Positions 6,046-56,908 of a DNA stretch of 64,000 nt are shown here, piece by piece. The position numbers were made by a program, and so were the translations under genes. Origin of the DNA: an uncultured Bacteroidota bacterium (GTDB taxonomy: Bacteria; Bacteroidota; Bacteroidia; NS11-12g; UBA9320); the NCBI GenBank assembly GCA_937124965.1, contig CAKZLB010000046.1, positions 100,776-164,775 on the forward strand, given 5' to 3'. How positions within the stretch are numbered: the first letter of the stretch is position 1; the number at the start of each line of letters is the position of its first letter. Below the pieces are notes generated by a model, which searched no databases, had not been told where the DNA came from, and worked only from the letters and a program-made list of their open reading frames with translations.

Positions 6046-8451
6046 ATGAGAAAGACAATGTTGAGATGGATTTATTTTACAGTGTTGATAGTCTTTGGTA
6101 GCACCTTGTGCTTTGGTCAACAGGTTCGGATAACTGGGTCTGAAAATGAACCGATATCAGAAGTTGATGCGTTGATTTATTCAAAACGAAATCAAACCGC
6201 GTTATCGTCGGATGAAAACGGTATCATTCGATTAAATACCACCGTCTTTGATTCAATTGTTTTTTTTCACCCTTCTTATTTCAGGAAATCACTTAGCCCA
6301 GAAGCCCTGAAAGCGGCAAATAACAATGTTTCGTTAGATGTGAAGGTATATGTGGCACCGACGCTTTATTTCAGACATGATCCTGATTTTGAACGACAAA
6401 AAGATCAGCCAACAAAGCTGGTGACAATGAAGCCAAAGGACACGAAATTTTTCAATCCACAAACCACTGCAGATTTATTAGGGTTAAGCAATCAAGTATT
6501 TATTCAAAAATCTCAAATGGGTGGCGGAAGTCCAATGATACGTGGTTTTTCTGCCAACAATGTGCTTATTGTGGTTGATGGGGTAAGGATGAATAATGCT
6601 ATTTTTCGAGATGGAAATATTCAAAATATTATTACACTTGATGCTAATCTCATTGACCAAACCCAAATAGTTTTTGGCCCAGGGTCTGTCTTTTACGGTA
6701 GCGATGCAATGGGAGGTGTTATGGCGTTTGAAACTAAAACACCTTCAATAGATTCCGGAGCACATTATGATGGAAATGTAATGTTGCGAACTGCTACTGC
6801 CAATAGAGAAAATTCTTGGCATGTTGATTTAAGCTATGGCAAAGGAAAGTTTGCTGGTTTGAGTAGTATTTCTATCTCAAATTTTGGCGAATTGCGAATG
6901 GGTAATGATGGACCCCAAGAATACACCAGACCTTTTTTTAGCGAATACAATGGCTCCACTGATACAATTATCAGAAATGACGACCCTAATGTTCAATACT
7001 TTACAAGTTACAGTCAGGTAAATATCAACCAAAAGTTTCGATATAAACCAGATAGCTTGAATGACTTTGTTCTACATTTTGGATTAGCTACATCTTCCCC
7101 AATTCCACGCTATGACAGACTACTTCAAACCAGAAACGGTTTACCAAGATATGGCGACTGGTATTATGGTCCGCAGAAATGGACCCAGTTAAACGGTAGG
7201 TATTTAAGAATTTTCCCTAAAAAAGTAATCGCTGACAAACTGACTACAACCATTGCATACCAAAGATTTGAAGAAAGTCGCTTTGTACGGCCTTTTCGAA
7301 GTTTTGAGTTGGAAGAAAATAAGGAAAACGTTGATGTCTATTCGCTAAATATTGACTTAGACAAAAAGATAAATAAACTTGATGTTATGTATGGAGTTGA
7401 ACTGGTTTCAAACCTAGTTTCTTCTTCCGGTCAGGGAACAAAACTCGATTCAAACATAACCTTTGACATAGCGACTAGATATCCAGATCAGAGCACGATG
7501 AATACAGCAGCTGGGTATGTGAGTTTAAAAAGAGAGTTTGCAAAATCATGGCTCATTACTGGTGGTGCACGGCTGACTTACATTTCCCTTAATGCTCCAT
7601 TCAAGAATAGTTTTTACAATTTCCCATTCCAAGAAATTAACTTACAAAAATCTGCATTAAGCGGAAGCGTTGGTTTGCGCAAAATCATAAACAAACGATC
7701 ATTTATCTACGGAAGTGTTGCTTCTGGTTTCAGAGCGCCCAACATAGACGATATGGGTAAAATATTTGATAGTCAGCCGGATAGAGTAATCGTTCCAAAT
7801 GAGAATTTAAATCCTGAATATTCATATACCGGTGAAATTGGTTTTCAAGCCGATATCACCAAAAAGGTAAGCGTTCTCGTTAATTCATATTATTCGGTCA
7901 TTGACAACATAATTGTTCGAGAGGATTTTCAATTAAATGGAAGCGATAGTCTTTTTTATAATGGAGAGATGATGCGTATTCAATCTCTTGTTAATGCGAA
8001 CCAAGGTACAATTTCTGGATTAGAACTGCAGGTTAATATTGAGCTAACAAAAGAACTTGACGTTAAATCCTCGTATAACATTATTTCTGGAAGCACGAAA
8101 GACGGTTTACCAATTAGACATGTTACACCAAATTTCGGAAACACCACTATTTCTTGGAAACATAGCAAGTTTAATGTTATCGCTTATGCCAACTACAATG
8201 CTGAGTTGTCTAATGCCAGTTTATCACCATCAGAACAATCTAAAATCCATTTATATGCTAAGGACATCAATGGACTTCCCTACTCTCCCGCATGGTATAC
8301 AGTTAACTTAAAAACTGCCGTTACCTTTTCAAAATCTCTTAACCTAACATTAGGTTTGGAAAATATACTAAACAAACGCTATAGACCATACAGCTCAGGC
8401 ATTTCCGCTCCCGGACGCAATCTTATAATAGGATTGTATAGTAAGTTTTGA
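6046..8451 (+). CDS. TonB-dependent outer-membrane receptor with N-terminal carboxypeptidase-regulatory-like domain
   Basis: Signal peptide. Plug motifs GGGSPMIRGFSANNVLIVVDGVRMNNAIFRDGNIQ. Long beta-barrel with C-terminal ...LIIGLYSKF (terminal Phe). Confidence 0.85.
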   Translation: MRKTMLRWIYFTVLIVFGSTLCFGQQVRITGSENEPISEVDALIYSKRNQTALSSDENGIIRLNTTVFDSIVFFHPSYFRKSLSPEALKAANNNVSLDVKVYVAPTLYFRHDPDFERQKDQPTKLVTMKPKDTKFFNPQTTADLLGLSNQVFIQKSQMGGGSPMIRGFSANNVLIVVDGVRMNNAIFRDGNIQNIITLDANLIDQTQIVFGPGSVFYGSDAMGGVMAFETKTPSIDSGAHYDGNVMLRTATANRENSWHVDLSYGKGKFAGLSSISISNFGELRMGNDGPQEYTRPFFSEYNGSTDTIIRNDDPNVQYFTSYSQVNINQKFRYKPDSLNDFVLHFGLATSSPIPRYDRLLQTRNGLPRYGDWYYGPQKWTQLNGRYLRIFPKKVIADKLTTTIAYQRFEESRFVRPFRSFELEENKENVDVYSLNIDLDKKINKLDVMYGVELVSNLVSSSGQGTKLDSNITFDIATRYPDQSTMNTAAGYVSLKREFAKSWLITGGARLTYISLNAPFKNSFYNFPFQEINLQKSALSGSVGLRKIINKRSFIYGSVASGFRAPNIDDMGKIFDSQPDRVIVPNENLNPEYSYTGEIGFQADITKKVSVLVNSYYSVIDNIIVREDFQLNGSDSLFYNGEMMRIQSLVNANQGTISGLELQVNIELTKELDVKSSYNIISGSTKDGLPIRHVTPNFGNTTISWKHSKFNVIAYANYNAELSNASLSPSEQSKIHLYAKDINGLPYSPAWYTVNLKTAVTFSKSLNLTLGLENILNKRYRPYSSGISAPGRNLIIGLYSKF

Positions 8452-18972: not shown

Positions 18973-21900
18973 TTATCGCAGAATGTTTATGGTACCACTA
19001 AATTCATAGCTTGCCCCTGATAGGCTTGTTGCTTGAATCATGTAAGCATAAATCCCAATTTCGCAGAATTTATTACCTGACTTTCCGTCCCACTCTTCTG
19101 AAATGTCATCAGACTTATAGACTTGTTGGCCCCAACGATTAAATATTTCTATGTGGAATGAAGAAACGTTATTCCCAATAACTTTAAACTCTTCCGTTAT
19201 CTCAGACCCCTTATTGTTAGGTGAAAAGGCACTTGGAATATAGAGTTTAATGTCAGGCCCGACGTAAATATTACGAATAAATATATCTTCACAACTATAT
19301 TGATTAACAACCTTCAATGAAACTGGATAAACCCCTGTATCACTTTCAAAGCTAAATGTTGGAGACATTTCTGAGCTGGTATCTTGTGGGTTATTAGTTC
19401 CAAAATCCCAGAAGAACCTAACATTGTCACGATTAGGTGTCTTATTTACAAAAGAAACAATTGGTTCTCTTATTGAAACTTGGTCGCTAGGCAATGTATT
19501 GAATAGGGCAATCGGACTTTCATGAGCCTTTACTAGGTTTTCCCAAGTAAAGGTGTTCATACATCCTTCATTTGTTTCTGTCGTGAAACTAACAGAATAA
19601 TTCCCAGCGTCTTTGTAATTGTGACTTGGTTTAAGTTTATTTACGGGTTTTGACCCATCTCCATAATTCCAATTCACCATAACGTCTTTCCACATAATCC
19701 CTTCAACCGGAATAGCTTTGAAATTTGGCTCAAAAGTGAACGGAACACACCCTTCATAATAGCTTTCCAATAGTTCGATTTTGGCCAGCGGGTTAATTGT
19801 TATCTTATATTTTTCTATTTCAATTGGACAATAACCAATGCCTTGTAGCTCTAATGTTACTTCTAAAGATCTATTTGTAATATCATTAGCTGAAGGTTGG
19901 TATACCCAACGTTTCTTTTTAGTAAATATTTCGGTTGCACTGTCAGGACCAGTAATCTTTAGCCATCCATTGCTCACATTAATTTGCTCCAATTTCAATT
20001 CTTCCCCTTCACAAATCGAAGCCGGTAGTTGGTTAAACACTGAATACTGAGGTCTCTCAAAGATTTTAAGATTTTGAGGATATGTAAAATTGCAAAAGTC
20101 TTTGTTAACTATATAATCAAATGATACGTTTCCATTTGCTTGTGTGAGATCAATTTGGCTACCAGTTACAAAATCACCCGTAAAATTTCCAATATCAGGA
20201 TTTGCACTCAGGGTGTAAAAATCATCAAATTGACAAACACTATCAACAATATCAAATTCAATTACTGGTTTGCAAACCACAGTCAATGTTAAGTCTTTAC
20301 TCACATAGCACCCAAATTGATCGTATGTATAGTTTAATCCTATAATCCCGCAGCTATCAGGATTCCGGAATTGCGAATTGTATACGTCTTCAAAATCACT
20401 TGTGGAATTCCAACTGCCTCCAATAATAGGTATTGAAAAAATATCAGTTAGTGATCGAACATCATCTTGACATATATTCTTATCGGAAATCTGCGATAAA
20501 TCAATGTTGTCTAACAATGATAAAACTCCAGTATCTCTAGTGGAGCACCCAAAATCATTAGTATATTCTCCAATAATTTGATAGTCTCTAATTTGTAGCC
20601 CCGTTAGTTCTACTAAATGAGGTTTATTGAGTTCATTATGATTAAGTGGGTTCCCATCAATTAACCATGTAATGTCATAGTCGCCAAACGAGAACAAACG
20701 ACTATCCATATTCGTCAAATTGAAATACCCTGTTGCACCACATACAGTCGTTTTTGTCAAATCAAATGAAGGATTTGGATGGACCCACAAACAATATGTG
20801 TCTTTCGAAACACATCCTGACGAAAGTGAAGAGGAAGAAAATTCTTGACATAAATACTCCGAAGTTGTTATGTCGCTTAAACTTGAAAACTGTAGTTTGT
20901 CATCAGATAACATATCATGTTCTAAAGCTTTCCAGTTACCATCTTGGCTATTTGTTATTGTAGATAAGTCTAATTGTTTCTCACTTGCACATAAAAACTC
21001 TATGTTGTTAAACGTTATTTCAGGACCTTGTTCAACCACAATATCAACAGTATGTGTGTCTCGGCACTGTAAACCAAAACGTTTCCCAAAAACAAAAGCC
21101 CCAATTGAGTTTGCTCCATGTAATTGATCAGAAGCGCCAGAAAAACTCTTTTCAGTCTTAAACCTACTGCCATTTAGTTGCCAATAAATTGAATCTACTG
21201 ATGTATTTGTATACCCATTCGCTTCTAAGTGGATTGTATCACCTAGGCAATAATTGGTTTTTCCTTGAACAGTAGTAAAAGATTCAACAAAATCTAGGCG
21301 CGTGCGTTTAATCGGAGTTATAAATGAATCCTTACATCCAAGTTTTGATCGCATAACTGCAATCAGTTGTCCGTCAATTTGTTCGTCTAAAAACACAGTG
21401 TCAGATAACCCGATTGAGTGATATCTAATTTGATTAGACTGGTTTACTATTTTCCAATCAACTTCATGCAAAGTATTTGAATACGTTGAATCTCCAACAA
21501 GTGACAGATTCCCGCACCATAAGTCATTTACAAAAACATTGTTCTCTGGCAGATCCTTAACAAAAATCGTATAATCTTGTGTTATGGAAGATGTCAATGG
21601 GCAGTTATTGTCGGTTGCAGTTACTCTAAGAGTAAAGACATTTCCAGCATCCGTAACCTTAGGTTTCCAGCAAAATGAAAGTTTGTTATAAGGAGCATTT
21701 GATTGTGACACCTCAGTGATTGTGGCGCCAACAATATTTGTCTCATAGGTATAACTTACTGAGTTACTTTTCTGAAAAGACCCATCAGGAAACTTGTAAG
21801 CTTTATCCTCGGCCGTTATATCAAAACACAGCTCTTCGCCTAAGCACACCTCTAAGTCGTTGTCGGTTCCTAATGAAGTACCTTGTAGTCTGGGAGCATT

Positions 21901-22848
21901 ATTGTGTGATCCAATCGACGAAGTTTCTACTAATATATCACGTCGAATAGTACTGATTAATTTAGTTCCCGTTTCAGTATTTCTGAACGTGTTAACCTGA
22001 ATTACAATAGTTGCTTTTTCACTATTTTTTATAGGTGTAAAAGCGAGATATCCAGATTTCTTATTTAGTGTCATGCCAACTGGTAAGTTAGCGAAAGCAT
22101 TCGGTGTACAAGATGCGTCACCGTTGCACCAAACTGTAATCGGACGATTAACAGTATAACCACTTCTGTAGTTTATGGTTTCGTGAGCCTCCCGTAACGG
22201 TTGAGCAAACTCCACCACTACCGAATCGGTGGTATTTAACTGCGAAACATATGTTCTTACCGGTACATTAATTGGGAGGATAAGTTGTGGGTTTGCGGTA
22301 AAACTTGGAGAATCATGTATTTCGAAAGGGTTTATAAAACTATAGTTATACAGACGCTCTTCGGGTGTTGATTGTGACAAATTATCGATATCATCTGCTC
22401 TACTTGATAGTTGCACATACATTTCGAACCCACATGACTGGTACGATTTATAATTTTCAAAATCAATTTGAACAGAAAATGTATGAGCTTCCACGCCATA
22501 GGAAATACCTGTATCACTTTGACACTTTGAACTTGCTGACTGACACAATGGAAGAATCTCTACAATATTCTCTCGAGTCAAAGTCATTGTTCGCAGATTC
22601 GTGCTTGTGCATGTACCACGATCTGAAGTCTTCAAGTATAAAAAAATTGAATCACAATTCTTTGTGTTACTTCCCCCGCCAGCACCAGCAATTTTACATT
22701 CATTACAATCCCTGTAGACAGTAACAAAAGCATTGTATTTATAATCTGAAACATGCTTATAGGTAATTTCTGCTCCCAAGATATGAGAGGCATATGTTGA
22801 ACCACAAAGGCCAACAAGCAACCATAAAACACCTATTATTTTTTTCAC
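18973..22848 (-). CDS. Giant surface protein with T9SS type-B ('gliding motility-associated') C-terminal domain
   Basis: Signal peptide. Mature N-terminus ASHILGAEITYKHV. C-terminus YIPSAFSPNNKGSEITEEFKV...IEIFNRWGQQVYKS...EWDGK matches the PNAFSPNGDG-type CTD. Confidence 0.75.
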   Translation of the reverse strand: MKKIIGVLWLLVGLCGSTYASHILGAEITYKHVSDYKYNAFVTVYRDCNECKIAGAGGGSNTKNCDSIFLYLKTSDRGTCTSTNLRTMTLTRENIVEILPLCQSASSKCQSDTGISYGVEAHTFSVQIDFENYKSYQSCGFEMYVQLSSRADDIDNLSQSTPEERLYNYSFINPFEIHDSPSFTANPQLILPINVPVRTYVSQLNTTDSVVVEFAQPLREAHETINYRSGYTVNRPITVWCNGDASCTPNAFANLPVGMTLNKKSGYLAFTPIKNSEKATIVIQVNTFRNTETGTKLISTIRRDILVETSSIGSHNNAPRLQGTSLGTDNDLEVCLGEELCFDITAEDKAYKFPDGSFQKSNSVSYTYETNIVGATITEVSQSNAPYNKLSFCWKPKVTDAGNVFTLRVTATDNNCPLTSSITQDYTIFVKDLPENNVFVNDLWCGNLSLVGDSTYSNTLHEVDWKIVNQSNQIRYHSIGLSDTVFLDEQIDGQLIAVMRSKLGCKDSFITPIKRTRLDFVESFTTVQGKTNYCLGDTIHLEANGYTNTSVDSIYWQLNGSRFKTEKSFSGASDQLHGANSIGAFVFGKRFGLQCRDTHTVDIVVEQGPEITFNNIEFLCASEKQLDLSTITNSQDGNWKALEHDMLSDDKLQFSSLSDITTSEYLCQEFSSSSLSSGCVSKDTYCLWVHPNPSFDLTKTTVCGATGYFNLTNMDSRLFSFGDYDITWLIDGNPLNHNELNKPHLVELTGLQIRDYQIIGEYTNDFGCSTRDTGVLSLLDNIDLSQISDKNICQDDVRSLTDIFSIPIIGGSWNSTSDFEDVYNSQFRNPDSCGIIGLNYTYDQFGCYVSKDLTLTVVCKPVIEFDIVDSVCQFDDFYTLSANPDIGNFTGDFVTGSQIDLTQANGNVSFDYIVNKDFCNFTYPQNLKIFERPQYSVFNQLPASICEGEELKLEQINVSNGWLKITGPDSATEIFTKKKRWVYQPSANDITNRSLEVTLELQGIGYCPIEIEKYKITINPLAKIELLESYYEGCVPFTFEPNFKAIPVEGIMWKDVMVNWNYGDGSKPVNKLKPSHNYKDAGNYSVSFTTETNEGCMNTFTWENLVKAHESPIALFNTLPSDQVSIREPIVSFVNKTPNRDNVRFFWDFGTNNPQDTSSEMSPTFSFESDTGVYPVSLKVVNQYSCEDIFIRNIYVGPDIKLYIPSAFSPNNKGSEITEEFKVIGNNVSSFHIEIFNRWGQQVYKSDDISEEWDGKSGNKFCEIGIYAYMIQATSLSGASYEFSGTINILR

Positions 22849-22888
22849 TGAGTTATTGTTACACTAAGATACAATTAAATTATAAAAA

Positions 22889-22914
22889 GAAAGCAGTGCG
22901 TTAACACTGCTTTC
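22889..22914 (-). terminator. Rho-independent terminator between the two giant type-B genes
   Basis: On the minus strand, AAAGCAGTG-ttaacg-CACTGCTTT (9-bp stem) is followed by cttttTaTaaTTT. Confidence 0.5.
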
Positions 22915-22932
22915 TAAAATGTTGATTAATAT

Positions 22933-25900
22933 CTATCGAATTAGTGTTACAGTTCCTGTGTATTTGAACTTTTCACCACTCCAGCTTACAATCTCAAGGT
23001 AATATCCGTAAACATCTTGTGTTACATCATCGCGTTGATCATGACCAGCAGTTTTTGGATCACCATCCCATTCTGCATTTCGGCCATACTTTCCATCCCA
23101 CTCAGCTAATCGATCTTTCGTTTCCCAAATCACTTCACCCCATCTATTGAATATCATTAAGTGATAATCTCTAGCAGCATCATTAACAACTGCTCTAAAG
23201 CCATCGTTTGCTTCTGGCCCTCCGCCATCTGGGGAGAACGCATTTGGAATAAATACTAATATGTCTGGTCCAATTAATACTGGGTAAGTAAACTCACTTT
23301 CACAGCCGTAGTTAGTTCTTACTCTCAATGTTACGTCAAAGGTTCCAGTATCAGATGGATAGAAAAATAGTGGACTTACTTCTGTTGAAGTATCATCAAC
23401 TTCAGACAAGATACCGAAATCCCATTCATTATCTACAATGGTACTTCCAAGAACACCGCTCGTTGTAGACTCATTATTAAATTGGAATCTTGGCAATGCA
23501 GCAGTTGTACTATTATTCGGGTTAGGAACAAAAAGAGCATTTGGTATAGGATAAACTTCAACGTCTTCTGTTATTGTCGTATCGCACCCAAAAGCTGAAG
23601 TAACCGTTAATGTTGCTGTATTCAAACCATCAACTGTGAATTGGTATCCTGGATTTTGTGCAACGTCAGAGCCTCCATCATCGTATGACCACTCATAGGT
23701 TGAAGTTGTTGGATCAACGTCGTTCAATATAGAAGTTGTAAATGCAACATCCACAGGGTTACATCCATTCAACGTATCAGCGGTAATTGCAGGTTTTGGG
23801 ACAGGATGAACGAATACTTGTGATGTAGTATCAACCGCAGGGCAAACGTTTCCTGCGTTTACAATTGTTGTTGCATAAAACAGTAGACGAGTCACAGAAT
23901 CGGCAGAAGATGTAAAATTAAACGTAGTTTTATCTGCACTTGGATTTGACATTGATCCACCTAAAAGTGCCAGCCATAACACCTCAGTTGCATTCGTATA
24001 AGTAGCTTCTAACTCGAGAGACATATTGTCATCATATCTACAAAATGAAGTATCCTTAGGAATTTCAATAGTGTGTTTTTGATGTATTACAACCTGAACT
24101 GAATCTCGTCCTTCACAACCATGTATATCGGTATAATCATATTTCATATAAAATGGCTGATTATAATTAGATGCACCTGCAGGGCTAAATGTTCCTGTAG
24201 AAGATAATGCTCCACTTTCAGTTGTTGACCAATCTCCTCCAGAATAGTTCACTTCTAAGTCCATGTCTGGATTTGTTTCACAGAAAGTATATGGAGAAAA
24301 CGAATTGTTTACTTCACCTAGAGGTACTTCGTTGATAATTGGTATAGGAAGACCTCGAATTGTTAAGGTTGTATCTCTAAACGTCGGACAACCTGAACGA
24401 TCGTGTGAAAAACGCATAATATATGTCAAGCTATTTCCTTCACCTGGGTTTGTTGTTCCAAGAGTATTTAATGTGTCACCATTCAAAGTGTCACCTTTCA
24501 AGGCAATATTCAAACCAGACGCTGGAGCAAAACCACTTGAGTCTACTGCTTTCCAAATACCATCGTAAGGAGTTACTTTGGTTAATGCTTTAAGATCAAC
24601 AATTCCCTCATCCCAACATAAATCTGGGAATGCATCGAAGTCAATCTTAGGCACTTTAGTTATTGCTATCTCACCTGTATCTCGGTTATAACAACCGAAC
24701 ACATTTCTAAATTCAAACTCTACAGAGATTGTATCTGATAACTTAGAACCAAGAGGAATTACATTTTCATCAATATGGAGTACATAATCCTGAGTTGCAC
24801 CTGGACCTCCACCATTTACGTCCTCTATAATTTCATTTTCTTTATATGTTCCGCAATCAACACATTTCCATGCTTGACGACCTAAGGCTAGTGTACCGCC
24901 ACCTGGTCTAACGATTATTTTATCATTTTTTACATTGACAATTTCCTTGTCCTGACAGAAGTAACCGTCTCTTAACTCTACAATTGGGAGTGGATTTACT
25001 TTAATCTTGAACGAATCCGTTTTCACACAACCTGTTGAAGGGTGCACATATTGATAACTAATATTCCAAGTCCTTGATTTAGTTGCATGTCCCGCTTTGT
25101 CTGTAATAAACTCAGATTGCTTTTCAACTAGCTCAGCAGAGTCAGAACAAAACCAAATACCACCTGACGCATTCGCATCTTCTAGAATTCTTAGGTTAAT
25201 CTTACCTGCGTCATGACAAACATCCATATCTCCAGGCATTTTAACGGTAGGCAACGGGTTAACCGTTATTATCACTGTATCGGCGTCGTAACATGTTGTC
25301 GTGTCTTCAGTCACAAAAAGTTCTAACTGAAAATCGGTACTATTTTGAATATTATACGCTAGGGTATCTTTAGTTCCCATGTCTGTCCGTGCTGGCGGAT
25401 TTGTTATATCCCACCACCTAAACGTTCCAGATTTGGACGTCCCGGCAGTATCCAACTCAGTTCCTATAAGCTCCATAAAATCATTCCAACAGTATGTTTT
25501 ATCTAAACCAGCATTTGCAACAACGGTATCGTTGACAGCCAACACCATGGTATCCGAGGCATAACAACCTAAACTGTCAATTACTTTGATAACATATTCA
25601 CCTTGGTCATGCAAACCTTCCATGGTCGTATCTTCACTCACCAGAACCCCGTCCAAATACCACTCTTTCAAAAGAGTGTCTCCTTGTCTCACTCTAATTT
25701 CAGAAGTGTCTCTTGGATCATCCCAATACGCTAAACTATCGTTTGGTATCAAATTAATGGTATCATACGTACAAATTCTGCGATCTGGACCAATAAATAC
25801 CAATGGATTCTCTTTCAAGAAAATAACAGTGCTATCCCAAGCAATACAATTATTCTGATCTTTAATTTCTACGTAGAAAGTTGAATCCTCGGTTCTATTT

Positions 25901-27696
25901 GGGATTTGTACATCGACAAACGAAGTGGTATCACCTGTTCCCCATTTGAAGCTTACTGGCATGCTGCCATTCGCAACCTGTGGCTCTAAACGCAACGTTG
26001 TTCCTGCACAAACAAATGTATCTGGACCAAATGCTAAATCAACTTCCAACAATGGTGGAACCACCAATGTGTCATAGTAGTCATTTGGACACTTAGGACT
26101 ATTATTAATAGTATGTTGAATTATATATGTTCCTCCCTTTCTAAACTTTAGGGTATCATATTGTTTAGAACTTATAAAAGAGGTTGTACTTTCAAAATAT
26201 CCAATTCCTTTATCGAAAATAACAACACCGCTAGTATCCTTTAATTGCCAAGAATATTTAGCAGGGTTTTTAAAGTTTGGAAATGGCTTACTTTCAATGG
26301 CATATCGTCCACAATCCAATTTCGTGATTTTTCTATCTGCTTCAGCAATTGGATTTACCTTTACCAAGAATGCTCGAACAGTTACAGCATTCAAAGGACA
26401 AGCATCATCACGTGCAGTTACTGTATATGAATATGGTAGATCACTGGCAGCACCAATTGGAGGTGTCCAACAGAATCGCGCTGATTGATTGATTGCTTTT
26501 GCATTAGTAACCGTAAATGATGCTCCTGGAATACCACGATTCCATTTCACTGTCACCGTATCCGGATCGGGTGTGGGCAACGGTGGTGGCGGAACCTTGA
26601 CCTTGTCCTCCGTGGTTATTGTATAACAGAGCTGGGAGCCCTCACAAACCGTCGAAGTAAACTGCCCTTTTATAATGGGCGGATTATTCCCGGGACATTG
26701 CTTGGTAATAAACTGCATATCCCGCCTTGTGACCCCAATTACTTCATATTTCCCTTTATCGTTCTTTCTCCATTCCTTTACTTCCAATACTGCAACAGTA
26801 ATCTCATCACACTTTACTGGTGTAAAAATTAAATCTCCAGTTTCTTCATCTAAATAGATTCCGATTGGTGGATTAGCATTTTGATTAACATATGGTGGCT
26901 TTAATGAACCTGGGTAGTAAGAATCAAATGGGTTCTTGTACGTATAGTTTCCACTGTAAGCGATTTTATTATTATACCCTCTTAATGGATCAGCAAATGA
27001 ATATGACAATGAATCAAAGTCTGATGTATCCGATGCACCATTATTATAGTAGAATGGTTGGTTACAACATAAGTATGCAATTGGCTCCGTTGTTAACGAA
27101 GGCGAAGAGTTACACGGTGCTTTACAAAGGTCAATAGTAGCATACGTATAAAAGTTCTGGTTTGCAGCTCCCGAAGTAATGTTCGAGTTTCTACAACACT
27201 GCCCTGTTTCTAATCGAATTTCACAACAGCCATTTTTAGTCAAATTACTATAAGGCGCCTTGTTAAAGTCAATAGTAACAGTATAATAATGCTCTTCAAT
27301 GCCGTCACCTGTTCGACTTGTATTAGAAGGATTACAAGGTTTGGTTGCAGTAGCACAAACCGGCGTTACATCTCGAATACTTTGACGTGTCAAAGAAACT
27401 CCTTGTGAAGCTCCAGTTTTTGTACAAATCAACTTCGTGATATTACTTGGGTTACCAAAAGGAACCCCACCACAATAACGATAATATTTTACCGTAAATT
27501 CAAATTTTAATGTGTCGAGACACTTGTACGTGATGTCCGCTCCCATTACGTGTGTTGCTTTTGCTTGTTGTACATTCGCAAACAACACGAATCCAAGTAA
27601 TGCTAGCGTGCTGACAATCAGACGCTTAAACCTCAGTGTATATTTTTGTAGACCTTTTTCCATAATAAACGTGCTAAAATAATCTTTTTTGTCCAA
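22933..27696 (-). CDS. Giant surface protein with T9SS type-B C-terminal domain (paralog of 18973..22848)
   Basis: Signal peptide. Mature N-terminus ATHVMGADITYKCL (same motif as its neighbour). C-terminus VFIPNAFSPDGGGPEANDGF...LMIFNRWGEVIWET...EWDGK. Confidence 0.75.
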   Translation of the reverse strand: MDKKDYFSTFIMEKGLQKYTLRFKRLIVSTLALLGFVLFANVQQAKATHVMGADITYKCLDTLKFEFTVKYYRYCGGVPFGNPSNITKLICTKTGASQGVSLTRQSIRDVTPVCATATKPCNPSNTSRTGDGIEEHYYTVTIDFNKAPYSNLTKNGCCEIRLETGQCCRNSNITSGAANQNFYTYATIDLCKAPCNSSPSLTTEPIAYLCCNQPFYYNNGASDTSDFDSLSYSFADPLRGYNNKIAYSGNYTYKNPFDSYYPGSLKPPYVNQNANPPIGIYLDEETGDLIFTPVKCDEITVAVLEVKEWRKNDKGKYEVIGVTRRDMQFITKQCPGNNPPIIKGQFTSTVCEGSQLCYTITTEDKVKVPPPPLPTPDPDTVTVKWNRGIPGASFTVTNAKAINQSARFCWTPPIGAASDLPYSYTVTARDDACPLNAVTVRAFLVKVNPIAEADRKITKLDCGRYAIESKPFPNFKNPAKYSWQLKDTSGVVIFDKGIGYFESTTSFISSKQYDTLKFRKGGTYIIQHTINNSPKCPNDYYDTLVVPPLLEVDLAFGPDTFVCAGTTLRLEPQVANGSMPVSFKWGTGDTTSFVDVQIPNRTEDSTFYVEIKDQNNCIAWDSTVIFLKENPLVFIGPDRRICTYDTINLIPNDSLAYWDDPRDTSEIRVRQGDTLLKEWYLDGVLVSEDTTMEGLHDQGEYVIKVIDSLGCYASDTMVLAVNDTVVANAGLDKTYCWNDFMELIGTELDTAGTSKSGTFRWWDITNPPARTDMGTKDTLAYNIQNSTDFQLELFVTEDTTTCYDADTVIITVNPLPTVKMPGDMDVCHDAGKINLRILEDANASGGIWFCSDSAELVEKQSEFITDKAGHATKSRTWNISYQYVHPSTGCVKTDSFKIKVNPLPIVELRDGYFCQDKEIVNVKNDKIIVRPGGGTLALGRQAWKCVDCGTYKENEIIEDVNGGGPGATQDYVLHIDENVIPLGSKLSDTISVEFEFRNVFGCYNRDTGEIAITKVPKIDFDAFPDLCWDEGIVDLKALTKVTPYDGIWKAVDSSGFAPASGLNIALKGDTLNGDTLNTLGTTNPGEGNSLTYIMRFSHDRSGCPTFRDTTLTIRGLPIPIINEVPLGEVNNSFSPYTFCETNPDMDLEVNYSGGDWSTTESGALSSTGTFSPAGASNYNQPFYMKYDYTDIHGCEGRDSVQVVIHQKHTIEIPKDTSFCRYDDNMSLELEATYTNATEVLWLALLGGSMSNPSADKTTFNFTSSADSVTRLLFYATTIVNAGNVCPAVDTTSQVFVHPVPKPAITADTLNGCNPVDVAFTTSILNDVDPTTSTYEWSYDDGGSDVAQNPGYQFTVDGLNTATLTVTSAFGCDTTITEDVEVYPIPNALFVPNPNNSTTAALPRFQFNNESTTSGVLGSTIVDNEWDFGILSEVDDTSTEVSPLFFYPSDTGTFDVTLRVRTNYGCESEFTYPVLIGPDILVFIPNAFSPDGGGPEANDGFRAVVNDAARDYHLMIFNRWGEVIWETKDRLAEWDGKYGRNAEWDGDPKTAGHDQRDDVTQDVYGYYLEIVSWSGEKFKYTGTVTLIR

Positions 27697-44264: not shown

Positions 44265-44915
44265 ATGACCGCCGAATATTTATTTGACGAATACGCCGAG
44301 ATTTACCAGAACAAATATTGGGATGTTTCTAAGTATTCTAAAAGCATTGACGCCCTTTGTTCTGAGATAAAAAAAGACTGTCCAACACTAATTGAACTCG
44401 GCTGTGGCCCGGGTAATTTAACCAATGCACTGTTAGCCCAACTGCCTACTTCAAATTATTTGGCAACGGATATTTCTTCAGAAATGGTGAAGCTTTCGGT
44501 TAAAAACAATCCAACAGCCGACCACGAAGTACTTGACATAAATAACCTAGCAACCCGCTCAAAAACCTACGATGGTATTGTAGCGGGATTTTGCATTCCT
44601 TACCTATCGCCCGAACAGGTTGTTGATTTTTTAGAAGCGGCGAAACGCATGTTAAATCATGGTGGTATGCTTTATTTAAGTGCAATAATCGCCACTCAAA
44701 ACAGCAAGGAACGCACTGTTTCCAGCGATGGCCAGCAACATCTTGACATGTATTATTATTCTAAGTCATGGTTAATTAACCAACTAAAAAACCATGGTTT
44801 TACGCTATTATTTGATGAAACCATTCACATAGATAACAATCCCAAAAATGAAAAAATGGATTGGACTGCAGTGATGCGGTTGGATTATAATAAAAAGTCA
44901 CCTTGCCCTAGTTAG
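44265..44915 (+). CDS. Class I SAM-dependent methyltransferase
   Basis: LIELGCGPGNLTNAL motif I. The last 7 codons and the stop lie inside direct-repeat copy 1. Confidence 0.7.
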   Translation: MTAEYLFDEYAEIYQNKYWDVSKYSKSIDALCSEIKKDCPTLIELGCGPGNLTNALLAQLPTSNYLATDISSEMVKLSVKNNPTADHEVLDINNLATRSKTYDGIVAGFCIPYLSPEQVVDFLEAAKRMLNHGGMLYLSAIIATQNSKERTVSSDGQQHLDMYYYSKSWLINQLKNHGFTLLFDETIHIDNNPKNEKMDWTAVMRLDYNKKSPCPS

Positions 44916-45052
44916 GTGACCTTATTTACAACACGAAATATTAATGAGGGTTGTTGGCCTTGGCCATGCGAAAAACCTCTTTTACCATTAAAGTCTAATA
45001 AATTTTCTGTTTTGATTACGGAGATGTCAGATTGGATTGCATAATACAACCT
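44892..45052. repeat. Direct-repeat copy 1: hairpin (AAGTCACCT..AGGTGACTT) plus degenerate copy of the icd 3' end
   Basis: About 85% identical over ~160 bp to 48008..48170. The minus-strand translation gives ...DISVIKTENLLDFNGKRGFSHGQGQQPSL, against the real icd C-terminus DIDVIKTENLYDFNGNRGYSLGQGQ*. Confidence 0.75.
44938..45030 (-). pseudogene. Displaced 3'-terminal fragment of icd (about 25 codons, no upstream gene body)
   Basis: See direct-repeat copy 1. Only the terminal codons are present, and its stop is shifted relative to the real icd. Confidence 0.6.
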
Positions 45053-45175
45053 TTAGCTAAGCGCATGTGTATCTCAGGGCATTGCGTATAAGCTTTGTTG
45101 TATGCTGTTTTTTCATTTTTTGTTTAAGCCTTTGAAACAAATAGCCCCGAATTGCTCGGGATGGTTTGTTACAAG

Positions 45176-47449
45176 TTAGTTTTTCACTGTTACAAACCAC
45201 ATGTCAACTTCCCCTTTGCCTTTTGCCTCAATCTTACCTCTGTGTTCAAAATCGAAGTGTGGTTCATCTTTGATGATTTCATAGGTGGTGTTGGAGATGT
45301 TGACCTTCCCCACTTCACCAGCACTTTCCATGCGGCTGGCGGTGTTTACCGTATCACCCCAAATATCGTATTGGAATTTGGTTGCACCAACAATACCAGC
45401 CACAACAGGACCGGTATGAATACCCGCTCTCATTTCAAAAGCAGGTTTGCCAGCCGCATCATTTTCTGCTTTGCGCGATGTTATAAACGCTTGCATTTCT
45501 AATGCAGCCAATACAGTATTCTTCGTTGATTCGGCTGTTGGTATAGGCAAACCTCCGGCCGCCATATAAGCATCTCCAATGGTTTTGATTTTCTCTACGT
45601 TGTACTTTTTACAAATGGAGTCAAAGGCTTCGAAGCAGATATTGATTTCTGCCACTAGCTCTTTGGCGCTGAGCTTTGCCGATGTCTGTGTAAATTCCTT
45701 GAAGTCGGTGAAGAGAATGGACACGTTTTCAAAATCACGGGCTTCGGCTTTGCCATTTTCTTTGAGCTCTGCAGCTATATCTGCAGGGAGAATGTTTAGC
45801 AATAGATTGTCGGAACGGTCTTTTTCTTTGGAGATGGTGTCTCTTGATTTTTTAATATAGCGGTTACGAGAATACAGTCCGCCTGCAATTAGTAGCAACA
45901 GCATTCCACCACCTGCCAACATATTTCTCGTTCTGTTCTTAATAGCAACTTCTTCTTGGTGGGCTTCTTGCACTAGACGGGCTTCTTCGGCTTTTGCAAT
46001 GCTGTCTTGCAATATGGTCTTGGCAAACTCCATTTGTTGGAGTTTTTGGGTAGTTTCTTGTGCATTTAAACTGTCATCAATGACTTTCATTTTTTCCATG
46101 TATATCAACGCCATATTGCCGTTACCGATGGCTTTGTAGGACTGGTAAATGCATTGACATGGACCGCTCTGATCTTTCAAAACATTTACTTCTTCAGCTA
46201 GTGCCAACCCTTGCATACAATATTTAAGTGCTTCGTCGTATTGTCTTTTTGAAAGGTAAATATCTCCAATATTCGTAAAAACACCTGATGTTCGCTTTTT
46301 AAGCCCAAATTGTTCATATTGTTTTAAGGAACGATGAAAATATGCTAGCGCGTTTGTGTAATCACCTTGCCTACTATAAACAAGACCAATATTGTTCAAA
46401 AGGTCTGCAATCAACTTTTCAAAAACAATCTCTTCTGCAATTTGTAAAGCTTGGTTGTAATAATCCAATGCCATAGTATAGTTACCCTGGTCAGAGTATA
46501 CATTTCCTATCAAATTTTGAGTTGCAGCGACGTCGTTTTTAAGTCCTAGGCTTGTTGATAAATTTAGGGAACGGTTGCAATACTTCAATGCTTCGGTGAA
46601 GTTTTCTTGATACAAGTAAATTATGCCAATATTAGACAAACAAAGTGAAACTCCTCGTTCGGACTTTGCCCCTTCAAACATTATTAATGAACGCTTAATA
46701 TATTCAAGAGCTTTGTCGTACATACCTTGTTCAACGTATATACTTCCGATGTTAAAAAAACTTCCTGCAGTATTTAAACTATCCTCAATTTCTATATTAT
46801 ATTTAAGTTCTCGATTGAAAACGTTTATGGCCATAGCGTATTTACCCTGCATCTTGAATAATTTACCAAGAGAATTTAAAGCAGTTCCAACTCCTGCTTT
46901 ATAGCCAACCTTTTCAGAAATAGTGATGGACTGATTTACATATTCAATTGCTTTGTCTAAATCGCCTTGTTGCTCATAAACGTTCGAAATTCTAGCCAAC
47001 AGCTTTGCAACCCTTCTATCTTCGCCTAATTCTTCATATATCTTTAGTGCATAATTGTAGTTCTCCAAGGTTTTGGTGAAGTCTTTTTTATTGAAATATG
47101 AAGCTGCTATATTATTGAATCCCTTTGCCTCACCCAATGGGTAATTATTTTTTTTACTGTAGGCAATTAACCTTTCTGAAAGAGCAATGGCTGTGTCTGG
47201 ATTGGATGTTACATATCCGGACCAAATGTAATGTTGGAAAGCCTTGGTCCGGCTTGAATCATGTTGTGTTTCATCTTGCCAAACGCCGTATAAGGAGTCT
47301 AGGTTTTGCCCATGCGCAGAATTAGTTCCAATAGCTACCGGGAGCGAAAAACTGATTAAAGTTAAAAGTGAATAGTTAAGGATTCTAGTTTTCATAATGA
47401 GTCGGGATTTCACTGCTTTTGATTTTGTTTTTATAAAGGTATCTCTCAT
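45176..47449 (-). CDS. TPR-repeat sensor adenylate/guanylate cyclase (class III cyclase homology domain)
   Basis: N-terminal signal/TM and about 10 TPR units (…YNQALQIAEE…). Also a TM helix, a coiled coil and a C-terminal cyclase domain (FTDFKEFT...GDAYMAAGGLP...RAGIHTGPVVAGIVG...WGDTVNTASRMES). Alternative start at 47395. Confidence 0.85.
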   Translation of the reverse strand: MRDTFIKTKSKAVKSRLIMKTRILNYSLLTLISFSLPVAIGTNSAHGQNLDSLYGVWQDETQHDSSRTKAFQHYIWSGYVTSNPDTAIALSERLIAYSKKNNYPLGEAKGFNNIAASYFNKKDFTKTLENYNYALKIYEELGEDRRVAKLLARISNVYEQQGDLDKAIEYVNQSITISEKVGYKAGVGTALNSLGKLFKMQGKYAMAINVFNRELKYNIEIEDSLNTAGSFFNIGSIYVEQGMYDKALEYIKRSLIMFEGAKSERGVSLCLSNIGIIYLYQENFTEALKYCNRSLNLSTSLGLKNDVAATQNLIGNVYSDQGNYTMALDYYNQALQIAEEIVFEKLIADLLNNIGLVYSRQGDYTNALAYFHRSLKQYEQFGLKKRTSGVFTNIGDIYLSKRQYDEALKYCMQGLALAEEVNVLKDQSGPCQCIYQSYKAIGNGNMALIYMEKMKVIDDSLNAQETTQKLQQMEFAKTILQDSIAKAEEARLVQEAHQEEVAIKNRTRNMLAGGGMLLLLIAGGLYSRNRYIKKSRDTISKEKDRSDNLLLNILPADIAAELKENGKAEARDFENVSILFTDFKEFTQTSAKLSAKELVAEINICFEAFDSICKKYNVEKIKTIGDAYMAAGGLPIPTAESTKNTVLAALEMQAFITSRKAENDAAGKPAFEMRAGIHTGPVVAGIVGATKFQYDIWGDTVNTASRMESAGEVGKVNISNTTYEIIKDEPHFDFEHRGKIEAKGKGEVDMWFVTVKN

Positions 47450-47639
47450 TGTTCGTTGTTCACTATAAACTTTTCACTGTTATACAATATCCGACGGGTT
47501 TATGCTGTTGTTGGGTTTTGAATGGTGGTTCATGCTGTTGTTGCAAATTAAGAAAAATATGGGTTTGGACAACCTCCAGAGTTCGTGAACGTTGCTCGTA
47601 TTGTTCGTTGATTTTTGTTGGTTTGGAATTACTAAAGAG

Positions 47640-47930
47640 TTGTTGGGGGTGGCACATAGTTGGTTTGCAAAAGACGGATGTTGCGCCCCGAGACTGGAGG
47701 CCTGAACGCAGTGAAGGGTGCGCAGCACGGAGCAACGCGAACCCGTAAGGCGAGGAAATGGCGCCAAAGAAAATGATATTCAACCAGTTGTTTGTGCGCT
47801 TCGTAGGAAGATAGCGGTGTTCTCACATCGTGTATGGCGCTCAATGCATGATGTAGGGTTTGTCGACTAACTGTTTACAAACCCACTCGACCTTCACACA
47901 ACCGCCATTAGTGGGTCAGAGCTGCCTCGT
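47640..47930. other. GC-rich, ORF-free element: candidate structured RNA or other non-coding element of unknown class
   Basis: Local GC is far above the flanks. Contains palindromes (GGCGCC) and complementary blocks GCGCCCCGAG.../...GGCGAGGAAATGGCGCC. Only short overlapping ORFs on both strands. Confidence 0.25.
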
Positions 47931-48007
47931 CGACTTCGTTTTATGATATTCTAAACCTATTACTTTGGTTTCTACGAAGTCCCAAAACATCTCTCGGGTA
48001 TAAAAGT

Positions 48008-48170
48008 AAAAAGTCACCTAACCGAAGCTAGGTGACCTTATTTACAACACGAAATATTAATGTGGGTTATTGGCCTTGGCCAAGCGAATAACCTCTGTTA
48101 CCATTAAAGTCATATAAATTCTCTGTTTTGATTACGTCGATGTCTGCAACAATTGCATGATTCAATAAGC
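48008..48170. repeat. Direct-repeat copy 2: terminator hairpin plus authentic icd 3' end
   Basis: AAAAAGTCACCT-aaccgaagct-AGGTGACTTATTT hairpin immediately 3' of the icd stop. Homologous to 44892..45052. Confidence 0.75.
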
Positions 48171-49500
48171 TTGTAATGAATAACTTACTAAATTTCCCAC
48201 CATTCTTCACTTCGAATCTACATCGCCAGTGATCCGTGCAAAAAGTTTCTTCAAATCCGTTCGGCCACACCTTCACGCCTCGATTGGTAATCATGGTGAG
48301 CGTTGTTTCGTCGTTTAACTTTTGAAGTTTTGCTGCTAATTGGTCAGGATTACTTCCTTTCCAATCGACAAACAAATCGACGCCTTTTAATTCCTTATTC
48401 TGCGGTGCTGGGCGCTTATACTCAGGAATTTTAATAGAAACCGTAGAATCATATTTAGCAGGTTTAAACATTTTTGGAATTGATCCTAAACGCTCAATGA
48501 CCGCCTCGCCAAATTCTTTCGTACCAACTTTCGATGAACTAACTCCATCTTTATAAATATCGACAGTATGAACGCCGTCTTCTAGTGTTTTTAACCATGC
48601 GTTCTCAATTTTTTCAGCAATGTCTTGTTGTCCAATTTGATTTAACATCAATACCGATGCGCGTAATAATCCTGATGGATTGGCAATATTTTTTCCTGCA
48701 ATATCGGGTGCCGAGCCATGAATAGCCTCAAACATAGAACAGGTTTGACCGATATTCGAAGTTCCTACAAGTCCAACCGAACCAGAAATCTGAGCAGTTA
48801 TGTCAGAGATAATATCACCATATAAATTTGGCATTACCACAACATCGAAAATCTCTGGCGTGTCTGCTATTCTTGCCGCTCCAATGTCAACAATCCAGTT
48901 ATCAGATTCTATCTCTGGGTATTCAGCTGCAATTTCTTTAAAGACTTTATGAAACAAACCATCGGTGTGTTTCATAATATTGTCTTTGGTAAAACAGGCT
49001 ACCTTTTTTCGACCATATAACCTGGCATACTCGAAGGCATAACGGATAATTTTTTCAGATCCGGGTCGAGTTATCAACTTAAGACATTGCACTACCTCGT
49101 CTGTTTGTTGATGCTCGATGCCGGCATAAAGGTCTTCTTCGTTTTCTCTAATAATTACAACGTCCATTTCTGGATGTTTTGTAGAAACAAAAGGGTGGAA
49201 ACTCTGGCATGGTCTGACATTACCAAAAAGCCCTAAAGACTTTCTCATGGTTACGTTCAGACTCTTATATCCTCCCCCTTGAGGTGTGGTGATTGGTGCT
49301 TTTAAAAACACTTTGTTTCTGCGGATACTTTCCCACGCCTCCTCTCCTATTCCACTTGAATTTCCCGCTAAATATACCTTTTCACCAACTTGAATTTCTT
49401 CAAAATCAATGCGCGCACCTGCGGCTTTTAAGACTGCCAACGTTGCGTCCATTATTTCTGGACCAATTCCATCTCCTTTTGCGTATGTAATCTTTTGCAT
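48067..49500 (-). CDS. icd: NADP-dependent isocitrate dehydrogenase
   Basis: AKGDGIGPEI, PITTPQGGGYKSLNVTMRKSLGLFGNVRP, VIIRENEEDLYAGIE and NLYGDIISD blocks align with E. coli Icd. 477 aa with a C-terminal extension. Confidence 0.8.
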   Translation of the reverse strand: MQKITYAKGDGIGPEIMDATLAVLKAAGARIDFEEIQVGEKVYLAGNSSGIGEEAWESIRRNKVFLKAPITTPQGGGYKSLNVTMRKSLGLFGNVRPCQSFHPFVSTKHPEMDVVIIRENEEDLYAGIEHQQTDEVVQCLKLITRPGSEKIIRYAFEYARLYGRKKVACFTKDNIMKHTDGLFHKVFKEIAAEYPEIESDNWIVDIGAARIADTPEIFDVVVMPNLYGDIISDITAQISGSVGLVGTSNIGQTCSMFEAIHGSAPDIAGKNIANPSGLLRASVLMLNQIGQQDIAEKIENAWLKTLEDGVHTVDIYKDGVSSSKVGTKEFGEAVIERLGSIPKMFKPAKYDSTVSIKIPEYKRPAPQNKELKGVDLFVDWKGSNPDQLAAKLQKLNDETTLTMITNRGVKVWPNGFEETFCTDHWRCRFEVKNGGKFSKLFITSLLNHAIVADIDVIKTENLYDFNGNRGYSLGQGQ

Positions 49501-55774: not shown

Positions 55775-56908
55775 ATGAATCGAATAATAATCATTGGAAA
55801 CGGTTTTGACCTCTCGCATGACTTAAAAACTAGTTATGGCGATTTTGCCCTGCATCACATAAAACTTGCCTATCACAAGTTAGTGGATAAAAACTCTTCT
55901 GGCTCTAAGTTATTTAGTCTGCAAAGAGGAGATTCGTTCTATGACCATGAAGAGGTAAAAGATATTGACACTTATCGTTCTATGGTTAAAAACGGTAGTA
56001 TTATTGTTTTGAAACCGAATCAGACTGGAAATAATGTCAATAATAGGCTTTTTTCGGACTCTTTAGATTTTCTAATAGACCAAAGATGGGTTGATTTTGA
56101 AATATCTTTTTATCAATCTTTAACAGAAGTTTTGGATAAACCAAATTTGTATATAAAAAATGGACGACTAAATCGAGATGGTTTATCGTATGTTGCGGAG
56201 AGAAACAGACAACTTGAAGAAATTAAAGTTGAACTAGAAAAGTATATTGTTACTCAAGTAATAAACAAAACTGAAGTGGTTCAATTTGATTCTTACATGA
56301 ATCTTTTCTATGAACGATTATTTCACCACAGTACTGATCCAAAATATCCTCAACAAACTTGCTTTCTTAATTTTAATTACACGAATACTTTAGAACGCTA
56401 CACAAGCAAAGTCTATGTCCAAGAAGCAAAAATTGAAACTAAAAAAATCGACGTTATTAACATTCATGGAACTGCAGGAGACGTGAATAATCCTATAAAT
56501 TTTGGTTATGGTGCAGAGCTAGATGGCCGATTTAAGGAGTTACGAAATCTTCACGAAAACTCAATTTTAAAGTTTGTTAAGAGTTATGATTATCATTTAA
56601 ACTCTGATTATCAAAAGCTGCTAAAATACCTTAAAACAGATTATGAAGTGTATATATTTGGGCACTCTTGTGGTCAATCAGACGGAACAATACTCCATCA
56701 ATTACTTGACAATCCTCGCTGTAAAAGAATTAAAATTTTCCCTTTTAAAAGCTCAGAAAACTTTAGGACAATTACACAAGAAATATCTGGACACTTTGAA
56801 GATTGGAAAGAGATGTATCACAAGATAACTCCCTTCACTGAAACAGATTTATGTCCTCAGTACTCTGATCGGCATCTTATTAAAACACTTTTTCCTAATG
56901 TAAATTAA
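55775..56908 (+). CDS. AbiH-family abortive-infection protein
   Basis: N-terminus MNRIIIIGNGFDLSHDLKTSYGDF and later INIHG...INFGYG...YIFGHSCGQSDGTILHQLL reproduce the conserved AbiH blocks. Confidence 0.7.
   Translation: MNRIIIIGNGFDLSHDLKTSYGDFALHHIKLAYHKLVDKNSSGSKLFSLQRGDSFYDHEEVKDIDTYRSMVKNGSIIVLKPNQTGNNVNNRLFSDSLDFLIDQRWVDFEISFYQSLTEVLDKPNLYIKNGRLNRDGLSYVAERNRQLEEIKVELEKYIVTQVINKTEVVQFDSYMNLFYERLFHHSTDPKYPQQTCFLNFNYTNTLERYTSKVYVQEAKIETKKIDVINIHGTAGDVNNPINFGYGAELDGRFKELRNLHENSILKFVKSYDYHLNSDYQKLLKYLKTDYEVYIFGHSCGQSDGTILHQLLDNPRCKRIKIFPFKSSENFRTITQEISGHFEDWKEMYHKITPFTETDLCPQYSDRHLIKTLFPNVN

Follow-up and report, generated by a model that had tools for sequence, protein, structure and literature searches.

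A decayed second copy of the icd 3' end beside a cyclase gene in an uncultured Bacteroidota bacterium: a possible scar of an old e14-like insertion

We analyzed a 64-kb stretch of DNA, here called the window, from an uncultured Bacteroidota bacterium (assembly GCA_937124965.1, contig CAKZLB010000046.1, positions 100,776 to 164,775). In this window, the isocitrate dehydrogenase (IDH) gene icd ends in a block of roughly 160 nucleotides (nt) that runs from an internal codon through the stop codon to a terminator-like hairpin, and a decayed copy of the same block lies 3.1 kb away in the same orientation, abutting a methyltransferase gene that converges on icd. The DNA bracketed by the two copies consists of a cyclase gene and a non-coding block. 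The arrangement matches the architecture that prophage e14 has produced at icd in Escherichia coli. We tentatively read the locus as a decayed e14-like element, left as a scar by a single, old insertion of Campbell type in the icd 3' end; this is the interpretation we favor, and our confidence in it falls a little short of even.

A repeat search of the region identified a direct-repeat family of 166 nt at 44884-45049 and 48000-48165, with 84% identity and a spacing of 3116 nt. When positions 44800-48250 were compared with the whole window by blastn, a single pair was returned (44891-45028 and 48007-48144; 138 nt, 89.1% identity, E = 2e-44). Placed in register, copy 1 (44891-45049) and copy 2 (48007-48165) differ at 23 of 159 nt, which corresponds to 85.5% identity. 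An earlier note on this DNA had described direct repeats of about 160 bp in the same orientation around some 3.1 kb; these are confirmed, at coordinates within a few bases of those in the note, and the pair is unique in the window. Past 45049 on the right, icd similarity is no higher than for shuffled sequence. Such a sharp end, with no further icd remnant beyond it, is expected of a crossover boundary and not of a decayed whole-gene paralogue, and we rejected the idea that copy 1 is what is left of a complete second icd because homology does not continue past 45049. The outer end of the homology lies a few bases from the terminator T run. Mismatches between the copies are concentrated at the icd-internal end, with 10 in 29 nt there compared to 13 in the other 130 nt (Fisher p = 0.002). 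The longest identical run, 34 nt at 44913-44946, spans the 3' stem and the spacer of the block (p ~0.06 given 23 mismatches).

Copy 2 is the working end of icd. The gene itself (48067-49500, minus strand) is intact and encodes a 477-amino-acid (aa) enzyme that matches Pfam Iso_dh (E = 1e-95) and Isocitrate_DH_C_bact (E = 1e-43). As delimited by the repeat search, blastn and a terminator scan, copy 2 (48007-48165, minus strand) contains the last 26 to 33 codons of icd, the stop codon TAA at 48067-48069, a 27-nt spacer, a hairpin at 48010-48039 and a T run. The terminator scan flagged the hairpin, which has 13 pairs and a TTCG loop and precedes the T run, as terminator-like, and its fold energy is -23.6 kcal/mol. 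Judged against the IDH C-termini of 155 relatives, which are the basis for the statements on conserved IDH residues made here, copy 2 keeps every invariant or near-invariant residue. The copy proximal to icd thus completes an intact and conserved gene, and the repeat unit begins at a codon within the gene and includes the stop and the terminator. This agrees with the earlier description of copy 2 as the real last ~25 codons of icd plus its terminator hairpin; our count is 26 to 33 codons, followed by the stop and the 13-bp hairpin. Copy 2 would be the sequence that at present both ends icd and terminates its transcript.

Copy 1 (44891-45049, minus strand) is a decayed pseudo-3' end, delimited by translation, alignment with relatives and folding. 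It has a pseudo-coding part at 44951-45049 and a weakened hairpin at 44894-44923, and no gene body is attached to it. Read in the icd frame it gives ...YYAIQSDISVIKTENLLDFNGKRGFSHGQGQQ, and the stop codon TAA has changed to CAA. Its substitutions fall on conserved IDH sites: an aspartate became serine where the relatives have aspartate (147) or glutamate (8), a tyrosine present in 155 of 155 relatives became leucine, and a leucine present in 146 became histidine. The degenerate, gene-less copy at ~85% identity that the earlier note had reported is therefore real, with its stop lost and invariant residues changed. Copies 1 and 2 also have rare states in common, namely an aspartate at alignment position 32, where it is not among the five commonest residues, and an asparagine at position 34, which is found in 18 of 155 relatives. 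These common rare residues indicate that copy 1 descends from this lineage's own icd and not from a distant one.

The pattern of divergence between the copies indicates neutral decay. Over 32 sense codons (Nei-Gojobori), the proportion of synonymous differences (pS) is 0.176 and that of nonsynonymous differences (pN) is 0.164, giving a pN/pS of 0.93, as expected of a fragment that is no longer under selection. Neutral divergence of ~0.11-0.17 per site suggests that the event was old, and an old age is compatible with all unselected parts having been lost. In copy 1, the hairpin too is degraded in its upper stem (fold energy -15.4 kcal/mol); its basal stem, which contains the methyltransferase stop codon, is intact.

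The neighboring gene helps to explain which part of copy 1 persisted. A class I S-adenosylmethionine-dependent methyltransferase gene (44265-44915, plus strand; Pfam) converges on icd, and the copy 1 hairpin contains the last ~8 codons of this gene, which encode the extra tail NKKSPCPS, as well as the TAG stop. Alignment with 15 homologues shows that the conserved body of the protein stops where copy 1 begins. Together, the end of the conserved body and the position of the stop fit the view that copy 1 was the original terminator of both convergent genes. The copy 1 hairpin is probably now a two-way terminator between the methyltransferase and cyclase genes; this predicted role would explain why its stem has persisted while the pseudo-coding part has decayed.

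For comparison, we re-measured the corresponding repeats of e14. The prophage as annotated in E. coli K-12 starts within icd and has the icdC pseudogene at its opposite end. The icd/icdC block is 216 nt long and 87% identical, extends from the e14 boundary over the last 55 codons to ~50 nt past the stop, and has a terminator hairpin within each copy; its first 11 nt are identical. For this pair, pS is 0.288, pN is 0.016 and pN/pS is 0.054, and both frames are open, which indicates two alleles that were each functional. On insertion of e14 or phage 21, ~165 bp at the 3' end of icd are replaced (PMC6379469, PMC4129442). Where the integrase target lies deep within a gene, as is the case for icd, the block of identity can be as long as ~250 bp (PMC10111431). 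Excision of e14 and empty sites have been documented (PMC13626634).

The window locus and e14 have the same layout. In both, icd is the target, its 3' end forms direct repeats, the proximal copy completes icd and the distal copy is an orphan fragment; in both, the block starts at a codon inside the gene and includes the stop and each copy's terminator, with 159 nt at 85.5% identity in the window and 216 nt at 87% in e14. The contents differ. Whereas e14 spans 15.2 kb and carries intE, xisE and phage genes, the bracket in the window spans 3.1 kb and has one cyclase gene and no recombinase. Both e14 frames are open at a pN/pS of 0.054, whereas copy 1 in the window is decayed, has lost its stop and gives 0.93. 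The distance from crossover to stop is 55 codons in e14 and 26 to 33 codons in the window, and the host is a Bacteroidota lineage whose 477-aa IDH has an extra C-terminal domain, unlike that of the e14 host. The likeness to e14 and phage 21 proposed in the earlier note therefore stands for the layout, and it fails for the neutral divergence of the copies and the lack of integrase and phage genes. Among Bacteroides elements, NBU1 belongs to the class of genomic islands and integrative mobilizable elements that target gene 3' ends and carry the replacement end in their phage-type attachment site (attP). Islands of the TIGER/Islander type, which occupy the 3' ends of tRNA and protein genes, likewise have an extended attL/attR identity block that restores the target gene (PMC10111431). 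Such islands are called from an integrase gene together with an uninterrupted attB site in a reference, whereas the bracket in the window is known without either.

Under the reading we favor, a circular DNA that brought along an icd 3' end and terminator of its own would have crossed over with the icd of the chromosome ~26-33 codons ahead of the stop. The cyclase cassette (45050-47999) would thereby have been placed between icd and the convergent methyltransferase gene; copy 2 would have replaced the end of icd, and copy 1, until then the resident end, would have been displaced by 3.1 kb. Freed from selection, the coding part of copy 1 would then have lost its stop and changed at invariant residues, and its hairpin stem would have survived because it holds the methyltransferase stop and can still terminate converging transcripts. 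The recombination would have been catalyzed by an element-encoded tyrosine integrase, later deleted with the rest of the element so that the selected cyclase gene was left behind. The data show the repeat, the role of each copy, the neutral decay of copy 1, the lack of recombinase genes and the likeness in architecture to e14; we infer the direction of the insertion, the circular intermediate, the integrase and its loss. A single recombination between the icd 3' end and a circular DNA bearing a near-identical end explains why the repeats are in direct orientation, why the inner boundary is sharp and why the outer one falls at the terminator end, and it also explains the intact proximal gene and the orphan distal copy abutting the methyltransferase gene.

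The cargo is simple. The cyclase gene (45176-47449, minus strand) is intact and encodes a 757-aa protein with TPR repeats (Pfam TPR_12, E = 2e-58), a class III adenylate/guanylate cyclase domain (Guanylate_cyc, E = 2e-56) and, as read off the translation and not from predictor output, a signal peptide and a membrane segment. The terminator scan found the gene's own terminator-like hairpin at 45145-45161 (minus strand), inside a 126-nt junction segment (45050-45175). Upstream of the gene lies a 550-nt non-coding block (47450-47999) with a GC-rich core at 47600-47900 (~50% GC, compared to 37.5% in the window). The earlier description of the cargo as one TPR-cyclase gene and a GC-rich non-coding block is thus supported by Pfam and by composition. 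The gene is presumably expressed from the 550-nt block. Thousands of Bacteroidota homologues of the cyclase are found at ~50% identity, and the closest, its own protein aside, are 53-63% identical. These closest homologues lie in unrelated gene contexts, which indicates that the adjacency of icd and the cyclase gene is not a conserved arrangement.

The 550-nt block contains no credible open reading frame (ORF), and six-frame peptides from 47380-48070 had no Pfam match. It had no match in Rfam at E values up to 1 and returned noise only at values up to 10; phage and plasmid collections contained no similar DNA, and neither the rest of the window nor the icd loci of relatives had a further copy. 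Folding of the plus strand gave z = -2.4 (0 of 100 shuffles as stable), compared to z = +0.3 for the minus strand. On the plus strand, the GC-rich stretch 47600-48040 leads into the copy 2 hairpin, which is flagged as terminator-like in that orientation as well, and the stretch may represent a small RNA that has not been described before.

Two 17-nt direct repeats (GGTTYATGCTGTTGTTG) lie 30 nt apart at 47497-47545 (plus strand), 50-100 nt upstream of the cyclase start, and may be candidate binding sites for a regulator. The motif TCATGCTGTTGTTGCA has two direct copies upstream of the cyclase gene and a third, inverted and with 2 mismatches, at 48145-48160 (minus strand), within icd at the inner edge of copy 2. 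Allowing up to 3 mismatches, we counted 5 matches to this motif in the window compared to 0.79 expected, three of them within 660 nt. The icd copy of the motif may be a coincidence.

Several results weigh against an e14-like insertion. The first concerns recombinase and mobility genes. A search of the 45 window ORFs that are 150 aa or longer gave no match to integrase, excisionase, transposase, phage or transfer families (9 of these ORFs have no Pfam match at all). The earlier note had reported no integrase in the bracket; this holds and extends to all 45 of these ORFs. Within the bracket, the cyclase gene is the sole ORF with a Pfam match, so that no tyrosine integrase stands beside the putative attachment site, and a six-frame Pfam search of the 550-nt block detected no recombinase remnant. 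Nor does the cargo include phage or other mobility genes; it is a TPR-cyclase gene of chromosomal type and non-coding DNA. The neighborhood in the window is made up of housekeeping and Bacteroidota-typical genes (lpd, serS, dxs, cmk, purA, relA/spoT, type IX secretion substrates), and no tRNA genes were found in the window.

A second set of results concerns the origin of the cargo. The cyclase family is abundant on Bacteroidota chromosomes and essentially absent from phages, with one case on a Spirosoma plasmid at 41% identity. The GC content of the cargo (0.388) and its GC content at third codon positions (GC3; 0.363) match the genome, and its tetranucleotide z of ~1.9 is mildly atypical, similar to that of other repeat-rich genes; by these three measures the cargo does not appear recently foreign. 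In addition, the inner boundary of the repeat has no recognizable identical core and is the most diverged part of the block, with the 10 mismatches in 29 nt given above; the core may have decayed, or the true homology may end near 45028.

A third set of results comes from relatives and from viral sequences. Among about 150 Bacteroidota relatives, we found no second icd 3' end within ~10 kb of icd. Elements at the icd 3' end of relatives, which the earlier note had put forward as something to look for with an integrase, were not found among the same ~150 relatives. The 140 ORFs located up to 3.5 kb downstream of icd in relatives include no integrase family with at least two members, with singletons possible, and E. 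coli IntE searched with phmmer against all ORFs of these icd loci gave no match. The longer IDH homologues (484-503 aa), examined for altered C-termini, all have their extensions at the N-terminus. No icd 3' fragment was found on viral contigs with either the C-terminal peptides of the window or a profile of 61 sequences.

The host lineage, which has type IX secretion signals, is without a close relative in any collection searched, and the relatives surveyed are distant. Among the matches listed, the best for the icd protein were at 78% in species-representative genomes and 75% in metagenome contigs, and the best in a collection of 5.8 billion proteins was at 78%; the best IDH matches (75-78%) are in Cytophagales, Saprospiraceae and Flavobacteriaceae. 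The methyltransferase, its own protein aside, has no homologue above 43% identity. The proteins encoded in the window were themselves present on just two contigs, the longest being 318,742 nt. Gene order around icd is not conserved among the ~150 distant relatives.

Two contigs from these searches merit mention as separate observations. The sole viral match to the 61-sequence profile is on an IMG/VR contig (L164), where a full-length icd-like gene stands beside phage structural genes. This gene (6636-8078) encodes a 480-aa IDH-like protein whose C-terminal 60 residues are 48% identical to those of the window protein, with tail-sheath and deoxynucleoside monophosphate (dNMP) kinase genes alongside. 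We rejected the contig as an attP mimic because the icd-like gene is full-length and not a fragment; it is either a phage-borne metabolic gene or part of a host flank. On a 2.8-kb metagenome contig (L149), the last ~40 nt of icd and ~33 nt downstream of it form a perfect 73-nt tandem duplication (1391-1538), which is either an assembly artifact or a very recent local duplication of the icd end.

A site-specific integrase as the agent of the insertion is unproven. The exact e14-like design argues for one, as does the fact that selection on elements with targets inside genes is known to give rise to this design. The absence of a recombinase remnant, the lack of a second example in the phylum, the native-looking cargo and the lack of excess synonymous divergence argue against it. 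The contrast in pN/pS between the window and e14 gives no indication that copy 2 derives from a mobile allele that had evolved separately. The earlier idea of a decayed integrative element is therefore sustained in part, by the e14-like layout and the descent of copy 1 from the lineage's own icd, and is not sustained by gene content, as no integrase, excisionase, phage or transfer gene was found. The neutral difference between the copies fits one copy decaying after two near-identical copies arose, and homologous recombination without an integrase explains this equally well.

Such recombination is the basis of the foremost competing explanation, which we regard as somewhat unlikely: an integrase-free, homology-driven insertion of DNA donated by a sister strain that had the cyclase gene downstream of its icd. 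Insertions of this kind are known from naturally transformable bacteria, in which homology-facilitated illegitimate recombination or a Campbell-type single crossover leaves foreign DNA beside a homology anchor, with a duplicated or remnant piece of the anchor and no recombinase gene. At the window locus, one RecA crossover in the icd 3' end could have brought in a circularized fragment. Alternatively, a linear fragment anchored in icd at one end could have entered by homology-facilitated illegitimate recombination, its other end being joined illegitimately at a point 33 codons short of the resident stop. By both routes the resident 3' end would persist as a remnant, and the outcome would be the exact structure observed, with no need for the recombinase gene that is missing from the window ORFs. 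The rare lineage-specific residues common to the two copies and the lack of a synonymous excess are as expected of a very close donor and recipient, the cargo is host-like in composition, the cyclase family is ordinary chromosomal Bacteroidota cargo, and an end of homology exactly at the terminator end fits a difference in gene order between donor and recipient. However, this explanation requires either circularized incoming DNA or a rare illegitimate join, no arrangement of icd followed by the cyclase gene was seen in the ~150 relatives, and the near-perfect match to the e14 design would be a coincidence. Moreover, the known insertions of this kind are one-off events and not a family, and neither junction microhomology nor a donor is identifiable at the window locus.

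A local duplication or rearrangement without any insertion appears rather improbable. In that case, the cyclase gene and the GC-rich block would be the ancestral neighbors of icd, and the ~160-nt copy of the icd end would have been made secondarily beside the methyltransferase gene, for example by tandem duplication and internal deletion or by template switching during repair. The copies were apparently near-identical at birth, given a pN/pS of ~1 and their common rare residues, and the lack of mobile genes and the native-looking composition of the cargo would also be expected. Against these points, at least two precise events would be needed, the methyltransferase gene's own stop and terminator would have to be replaced, relatives have no synteny of icd and the cyclase gene, and there is no intermediate such as a partial second copy of the cyclase gene.

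We give a slim chance to a broader possibility. The icd 3' end may be an integration hot spot beyond Enterobacteria, used by undescribed Bacteroidota elements that bring a replacement icd end and terminator and deliver sensor cyclase genes, or the 3.1-kb segment may be a recombinase-free cassette that uses the icd end and terminator as a portable homology arm. Under either form, the GC-rich block could be a structured RNA or the recombination or regulatory region of the cassette.

There is next to no chance that the repeat is itself a working element, either the template and variable repeats of a diversity-generating retroelement, which a partial copy of a gene 3' end a few kb downstream superficially resembles, or the long terminal repeats of a transposon, because invariant residues of a housekeeping enzyme are altered in copy 1 and unaltered in copy 2. 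We rejected a diversity-generating retroelement, given that the mismatches fall in all base classes and are not adenine-specific and that no reverse transcriptase was found, and an insertion sequence or transposon, given that inverted repeats in the bracket are at chance level with none terminal and that there is neither a short target duplication nor a transposase.

If the e14-like reading is true, the locus is a decayed case of a known kind in a new phylum. An integration scar here would mean that the use of icd as an attachment site arose independently in two distant phyla, in both cases by the design of a replacement end plus terminator, and that a signaling gene can stay behind and be kept after its element decays. 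The wider significance is limited, as on current evidence this is an isolated, old and inactive remnant in a lineage without sequenced relatives. The locus also provides a worked example of how scars can be dated and polarized from sequence alone, by combining pN/pS between the copies with changes at invariant residues.

Elsewhere in the window, two other regions are unusual in composition. A gene of the AbiH abortive-infection family (55775-56908, plus strand; 377 aa) lies directly downstream of serS among housekeeping genes, with a GC content of 0.321 and a GC3 of 0.254; given its low GC content, it looks like a small insertion of a defense gene. At 18973-27696 (minus strand), two very large tandem genes encode proteins of 1291 and 1587 aa with PKD domains and CHU_C type IX secretion signals, and in tetranucleotide usage these genes deviate more strongly than any others in the window (z up to 2.9).

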